This document shows positions 29,240 to 29,800 of a DNA stretch of 64,000 nt, piece after piece. The stretch comes from Escherichia coli (GTDB lineage Bacteria > Pseudomonadota > Gammaproteobacteria > Enterobacterales > Enterobacteriaceae), in NCBI RefSeq assembly GCF_044647545.1, contig NZ_CP172818.1; one strand, 5' to 3'. The translations under genes were made by a program, and so were the position numbers. Below the pieces are notes generated by a model. That model was not told where the DNA came from and made no database searches. It was given only the letters and a program-made list of their open reading frames with translations. Within the stretch, counting starts at the first letter, position 1; each line of letters opens with the position of its first letter.

Positions 29240-29800
29240 CCTGTAGTACTCGTAGACCGGATCTCTCCCCCCCCACACCCCCCCCCTTATAATTTTTTTT
29301 CTTCCCAAAGACCACAAAATACAAAAAGGGGGTTTGTTTTTCGGGAAAATTCCTCCCGCAAATTTCAAACGGGGAAAAAAAGAAAAAAAAAAAAAAATTT
29401 TTTATATATAACAAAAAAAAAAAATGCCTTTTTTTTTTTTTTTTTTTTTTTTCTTTTTTTTCCCCCCAAAAAAAAAAAGGGATGGATTGTTTTTCTTTTT
29501 TTTTTTTTCCCGGGTTTTTTTTTTTTTTTTGGGTAAGGAGGGGGGGGGGGGGGGGTGGAAAAGAATAAAAAAAAAAAAATAATAAATAAAAAAAATAATT
29601 TTAAAAATTTTTTCTTTAATTAGCTCTCTTTCCCTCCCGCTCTCGGCCAGACAAAAAAAAAATTGTGTTTTTTTTTTTTTCCGCTTTTTGGTCGCCTGTT
29701 TTATAATATGGTGTTTTGTGTGTTTTATAAAAAATTATAAAATTTCGCGTGTGTGGGTTATTTTTTTTTCTTTTATTAAAAATATTTTTTTGGGTGTGGA
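29240..29800. other. Anomalous homopolymer-saturated low-complexity block (probable sequencing/assembly artifact)
   Basis: Runs such as C7-C9, A15, T22+, G16 and many A/T runs of 10-15 in succession; flanks are normal sequence; no periodic repeats, IRs or coding signal. Confidence 0.6.

Follow-up and report, generated by a model that had tools for sequence, protein, structure and literature searches.

A homopolymer-saturated block between flgL and rne of Escherichia coli as a probable sequencing or assembly artefact overlying a TacAT-type toxin-antitoxin operon

Type II toxin-antitoxin (TA) modules that combine a GNAT toxin with a DUF1778 (RHH) antitoxin include TacAT of Salmonella, AtaRT and ItaRT of E. 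coli, and KacAT of Klebsiella. The toxins of such modules acetylate aminoacyl-tRNAs (PMC9177977; PMC5959882); this acetylation, together with neutralisation by the antitoxin, is established for members of the family (PMC9177977). The two genes that should lie under the block described here belong to the same family. However, in the window (the whole 64-kb stretch of DNA that was analysed) there is neither an intact toxin ORF of about 160-175 aa nor an overlapping antitoxin ORF upstream of it.

The block itself has its closest likeness among stretches of low-resolution base calls and unpolished consensus. This class of artefacts includes the late tails of Sanger traces, stalled or noisy nanopore signal, and unaligned long-read bridges in hybrid assemblies, and trimming or polishing normally removes stretches of this kind before deposit. 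The block shares with them runs of all four bases, blurred collinearity, graded decay, compression and an abrupt recovery, although its damage (about 66% of the bases are correct) and its A/T bias exceed what a simple simulation produces. Another described class consists of homopolymer-length errors, which are typical of error-prone platforms, namely nanopore, PacBio, 454 and Ion Torrent. These errors alter runs that already exist, whereas the block makes new runs out of heteropolymeric coding sequence, with 194 substitutions.

Extent and composition of the block

A homopolymer-saturated block, flanked by an intact flgL stop codon and an intact rne terminator hairpin, was placed by the original prediction at 29240-29800. 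We located both flanking elements in the window and confirmed the block; its limits, determined by a diff against the genome of ECONIH1, were 29217-29795 (579 bp), thus slightly further to the left. The features of the locus, along with one more site in the window, are as follows.

28055..29008, + strand: flgL, intact, identical to flgL of ECONIH1 (WP_022645524.1)
29006-29008, + strand: stop codon of flgL, intact
29050..29085, + strand: intrinsic-terminator-like hairpin of flgL with T7 tract, intact
29087..29088, no strand: junction of a private 15-bp deletion, ATGAGACATAACGAA missing
29088..29216, - strand: 3' end of a GNAT (TacT-type) toxin gene, last 42 codons and stop, identical to WP_000613626.1
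29217..29795, no strand: corrupted block, 579 bp in place of 677 bp (ECONIH1 L002 29232-29908)
29806..29835, - strand: sigma-70-like promoter, ATGACA-18-TATAAT, 11/12, intact and identical to relatives
29866..29889, - strand: rne terminator-like hairpin, intact
29908..33081, - strand: rne (RNase E), intact 1057-aa ORF
58095..58100, no strand: T6 tract in the bhsA-ldtC intergenic region, T7 in all best-matching complete genomes

When homopolymer runs were counted over the 64-kb window, 18 runs of at least 7 bases fell within 29217-29795: C8, C9, T8, A7, A15, A12, T24, T8, A11, T13, T16, G16, A13, A8, A10, T13, T9 and T7 (8 of T, 7 of A, 2 of C and 1 of G). The lengths reported earlier were exact for G16, A15 and C9, while the run given as C7 is C8 and the one given as 'T22 or longer' is T24. 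The window outside the block (63.4 kb) had 20 runs of at least 7 bases, the longest being 8. Runs of at least 5 bases held 47% of the block's bases, compared to a window median of 1.8%. The GC content varied within the block from 0.24 to 0.32 (0.30 for the block as a whole), against about 0.5 in the flanks.

Tandem Repeats Finder reported for the block only period-1 arrays and A-rich pseudo-periods. The direct and inverted repeats listed by a repeat finder were trivial similarities between A runs or T runs and internal pairings of A runs with T runs; terminal inverted repeats were not found at the block edges, and an ORF scan found no coherent ORF in the block. These scans agree with the earlier statement that the block has no repeat-spacer periodicity, no terminal inverted repeat and no coding frame. 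A CRISPR array was ruled out by the lack of regular repeat-spacer periodicity. An IS element or MITE was ruled out as well, as the block has no inverted repeats at its ends and represents a net loss of 98 bp relative to the replaced sequence.

An Rfam scan of the block gave no family above the gathering score. Sub-threshold matches to plant microRNA precursor families were observed at 29510-29666, the best with 33.5 bits compared to a gathering score of 135, and sRNA matches were likewise below threshold. Such matches arise because complementary A and T runs fold as long hairpins, and they illustrate how an artefact may mimic structured RNA.

Phase-variable contingency loci have long mononucleotide runs in common with the block. 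In such loci, one tract in a promoter or an ORF varies in length between strains. The tracts of the block instead replace conserved coding sequence, and this reading was ruled out given 18 tracts of four bases, none of them present in relatives.

The native operon and three private lesions

We used the segment 28700-30300 of the window as a megablast query against 5,426 complete E. coli genomes. Both flanks matched, while the middle did not. The best-matching genomes have, between flgL and rne, a clean interval of 1012 bp with normal complexity, which holds two minus-strand genes annotated as a GNAT family N-acetyltransferase and a DUF1778/TacA-family antitoxin. The toxin ORF of these relatives is intact (164 aa; match to PDB 7AK7 at 7.7e-76), and the antitoxin ORF (97 aa, TacA1/DUF1778, a 294-nt gene; match to PDB 7AK7 at 4.8e-44) lies directly upstream of it with a 4-nt overlap. 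Weaker structure matches of the intact proteins were to GNAT toxins of Salmonella, Klebsiella and E. coli. Gene calls on public contigs carried the Pfam families Acetyltransf_7 (toxin) and TacA1 (antitoxin); in NCBIfam no family was above the cut-off for either intact protein.

The TacAT-type module between flgL and rne is an accessory islet. It was carried by 693 of the 5,426 genomes, always as a single chromosomal copy, and in 682 of the 693 it was at least 99% identical (L002 29103-29908). All 30 of the examined contigs with an identical FlgL carried normal TA genes. In itself, the intact module of the relatives is nothing unusual.

Some variation of the module was seen along the way. Seven genomes have a variant with 60-80% identity, for example NZ_CM182542.1 at 71.9%. 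In GCA_964054975.1 (L007 4049-4474) and GCA_000633675.2 (L008 4049-4474), relatives that are otherwise identical, the toxin was called as 141 aa and not as 164 aa, with 65 nt before the antitoxin stop left uncalled; there is also a 141-aa protein cluster (P0001), which has 189 members. This form may come from another start site or from a truncation of the toxin.

The block was originally described as replacing most of the flgL-rne spacer. This part of the description had to be corrected, as what the block overwrites is no empty spacer but most of a two-gene TacAT-type operon. Of the true sequence under it, 366 nt come from the 5' part of the toxin gene and 294 nt are the complete antitoxin gene, preceded by 21 nt of its leader. 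In the window both TA reading frames are destroyed, and the toxin keeps its last 42 codons only. The near-consensus promoter at 29806-29835 sits just upstream of the expected tacA (antitoxin) start; we presume it to be the promoter of the TA operon, and an autoregulated one.

Elsewhere the window could hardly be closer to finished genomes. Two 25-kb queries taken from it matched ECONIH1 and several further genomes at 100.0%, in a single piece. In a direct diff against ECONIH1 (NZ_CP009859.1), which was used as the reference, there were 0 mismatches over window positions 1-29087, 29088-29216, 29796-58100 and 58101-64000. Only three differences were left, all of them private: the block, a 15-bp deletion and a T7 to T6 change.

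The deletion of ATGAGACATAACGAA at 29087/29088 is situated 129 bp to the left of the block and adjoins the toxin stop codon exactly. None of the 685 complete genomes holding that segment had this deletion, and no microhomology was found at its junction. The deletion and the block probably share one cause.

At 58095-58100 the window has T6, next to a hairpin, while ECONIH1 and all other best-matching complete genomes have T7; no complete genome matched the T6 region at 100%. The change looks like a homopolymer-length sequencing error, being exactly of the kind that error-prone platforms make, and it would fit a record for which error-prone reads had been used at some stage.

We also searched for the block elsewhere. 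When the flgL-rne intervals of other complete E. coli genomes were aligned, they had the normal complexity that the original prediction had expected, and 0 of the 5,426 genomes reproduced the runs of the block. A distant blastn search with the block alone found no match in the same genomes, a result that is weak by itself since the low-complexity filter masks much of the query. An exact look-up of seven block ORFs in a collection of 15 billion proteins, NCBI assemblies included, found none of them. Similarly, a 36-mer (GGGATGGATTGTTTTTCTTTTTTTTTTTTTCCCGGG) and a 37-mer of the block had 0 exact matches in collections of genome and metagenome contigs. The clean 1012-bp interval of relatives that are identical to the window throughout the remaining ~63.4 kb supports the earlier reading of the block as a technical artefact.

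The block as a blurred copy of the operon

In a global alignment, the block (579 bp) runs collinearly along the 677 bp of native sequence at ECONIH1 L002 29232-29908. The 680 columns contained 382 matches, 194 substitutions, 101 lost bases and 3 gained bases. The losses were irregular and in many pieces, making the block 98 bp shorter on balance. Compared to versions of the block with shuffled runs, the alignment score had z = 20.

This result bears directly on a possible origin of the block in foreign or mobile low-complexity DNA, such as an insertion, an IS or MITE remnant, a CRISPR-like array or an AT-rich islet. The GC content of the block, so much lower than that of its flanks, is what speaks for such an origin. 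Still, the block is collinear with the native sequence and shorter than it, and has neither target-site duplication nor the end repeats or periodicity of such elements. The homologues of its ORFs are limited to the native toxin, in addition to the negative blastn and Rfam searches described above. We give this origin next to no credence and consider it refuted by the collinearity.

Identity to the true sequence decays in steps from the left edge of the block (88%, 70%, 64%, 60% and then about 40-55%) and jumps to 100% at 29796. The mean run length peaks at 29417-29516, with values of 6.1 and 4.5 compared to 1.37 in the true sequence. Each of the long runs overlies true sequence rich in the same base; for example, G16 lies on TTGGGCGCGGGGGGCTG. 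A chimeric 108-aa ORF of the block still aligns to the toxin, with 51 of 57 residues identical at the transition. In a search against 5.8 billion protein clusters its best match, at 66% identity, was an ordinary GNAT toxin.

The substitutions have a pattern of their own. In 148 of the 194, the new base was a copy of an adjacent true base, compared to 97 +/- 6 under a null model preserving the substitution spectrum (z = 8.4); none of 2,000 shuffles reached 148. In 184 of the 194, the new base equalled a true base within 2 nt. All 12 substitution types were present, with an excess of GC to AT changes (120/194). Copies of the 5' neighbour and of the 3' neighbour were about equally frequent (48 vs 63), so there was no directionality, which ruled out a directional phasing-type error. 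Neighbour-copying with neither base specificity nor direction indicates a loss of register or resolution rather than a mutational chemistry.

Diversity-generating or otherwise targeted processes were viewed against the same counts. The substitution spectrum of a DGR is adenine-specific; DGR or targeted hypermutation was ruled out, since A>N substitutions made up only 24 of the 194 and all 12 types occurred.

Could the block be real DNA of one isolate, in which the TA operon was wrecked by a locus-restricted process copying neighbouring bases, with the surrounding 63 kb untouched? No positive support was found for this possibility. Inactivation of a TA module is biologically tolerable, and the promoter and the toxin 3' end remain, as expected after internal damage. 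However, this process would have to change 194 bases and remove 101 within 677 bp, yet substitute none in the other ~63.4 kb. It would copy neighbours whatever the identity of the base, and we know of no polymerase, deaminase or repair pathway that does so. Besides, so many long tracts (18 of them, 7-24 nt long and made of each of the four bases) packed into 579 bp would be highly prone to slippage. None of the 693 carrier genomes showed an intermediate state of the TA locus, and the near-uniform sequence of the module among them also stands against such a process. We regard real DNA as very improbable. If the block were real, a mutational process without precedent would be needed, and the evidence is heavily against it.

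The reading of the block as a blurred copy was then quantified with filters applied to the true sequence. A plain majority filter, with a half-width of 4-9, lifted the number of matching block bases from 382 to about 440 of 579. The best fit, 461 of 579, was reached by an AT-biased Gaussian filter. The same filter applied to unrelated E. coli segments scored 180 +/- 43, compared to 594 for the native sequence. Deterministic filters thus explain at most 80% of the block bases, which implies a random component in the process and ruled out a deterministic smoothing filter as the full cause.

In a simulation, reads of the true sequence that were noisy and rich in indels, and that kept register at their ends only, were reduced to a column-majority consensus. 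The identity of the simulated consensus to the true sequence was 0.66-0.69 (0.66 observed), and the consensus was shortened, as the observed block is (579/677). The mean run was 1.6-2.3 compared to the observed 2.55, and the longest run was 9-20 compared to 24. The simulated GC content of 0.46-0.49, against 0.30 in the block, misses the strong AT bias; as the simulation does not generate this bias, an extra A/T bias has to be assumed.

Origin of the corruption and its consequences

The comparisons show that the block is collinear with the native operon, that its substitutions copy neighbouring bases, that it occurs in this record only and that its flanks are perfect. On these sequence comparisons, we conclude that the block is not a feature of the organism, wherever the corruption arose. 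It is probably a sequencing or assembly artefact, in which the tacT/tacA-type TA operon would have been rendered with a loss of register; the stage and the platform are what we infer from the pattern.

Under this explanation, positional resolution would have been lost, such that each emitted base represents the local majority in a stretch of true sequence reaching roughly +/-2 to 9 nt. An A/T bias and a length compression of about 15% would have been added to the blurring. Heteropolymeric sequence would turn into runs in this way, a T-rich stretch into T24 and a G-rich stretch into G16, while the genes would stay in order and about 66% of the bases would survive. The most likely origin would be a sequencing or assembly step. 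One option may be a consensus over a few noisy, indel-rich and mutually misaligned reads, as in a gap bridged by unpolished long reads; another may be base calls made on unresolved signal. The blurred result would then have been joined between two high-quality contigs.

Several observations sit uneasily with an origin in sequencing or assembly. An identity of about 55-66% is far below the normal consensus of any current platform, and standard pipelines seldom leave so bad a stretch within 64 kb that are perfect elsewhere. The AT bias, too, was not reproduced by the simple simulation of a mis-registered consensus.

More specific technical causes were rejected. Poly-G read ends of the Illumina two-colour chemistry, which stand for no signal, resemble the block in its single G16 run. 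This cause was ruled out because only one of the 18 runs is of G and the block follows the true sequence collinearly; with that homology preserved, it is not a no-signal call. The original prediction, which had offered poly-G read ends among its examples, had to be corrected accordingly: the block renders the true sequence collinearly but blurred, and is not unrelated junk. It had also offered a collapsed region; a collapsed repeat was ruled out, the TA module being single-copy in every carrier.

The presence of the block in none of the public collections searched leaves room for a corruption that arose after assembly. The block could have been made in silico by corruption of a file or its processing, by model-based imputation, by gap filling or by deliberate planting in a public sequence that is otherwise genuine; it would still not be real, but neither would it be a sequencing error. 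Many public genomes share the flanks without a difference, while the block, the 15-bp deletion and T6 occur in no complete E. coli genome. The block ORFs and the exact 36-mer and 37-mer are missing from the protein, genome and metagenome collections searched, the edge of the deletion falls exactly at the annotated toxin stop codon, and the damage acts like a smoothing filter. On the other hand, simple deterministic filters stop at 461 of 579 bases, and the 101 bases deleted irregularly in many pieces do not suit a position-preserving transform. The private T7 to T6 change is a classic sequencing error. The absence from collections may mean no more than that they lack the source assembly, or that genes went uncalled there. 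We think an in silico origin unlikely, with a chance that is nonetheless appreciable, and prefer the sequencing or assembly artefact.

The combination of the neighbour-copy statistic with the majority-filter fit offers a quick way, without reads, to discriminate blurred real sequence from genuine low-complexity DNA. The block itself matters as data hygiene only. It yields spurious ORFs, with poly-Phe and poly-Lys peptides and a chimeric toxin tail. It also erases a real, well-conserved TacAT-type module from the record, and in pangenome or TA presence/absence surveys it would cause false calls of this module as absent or disrupted.
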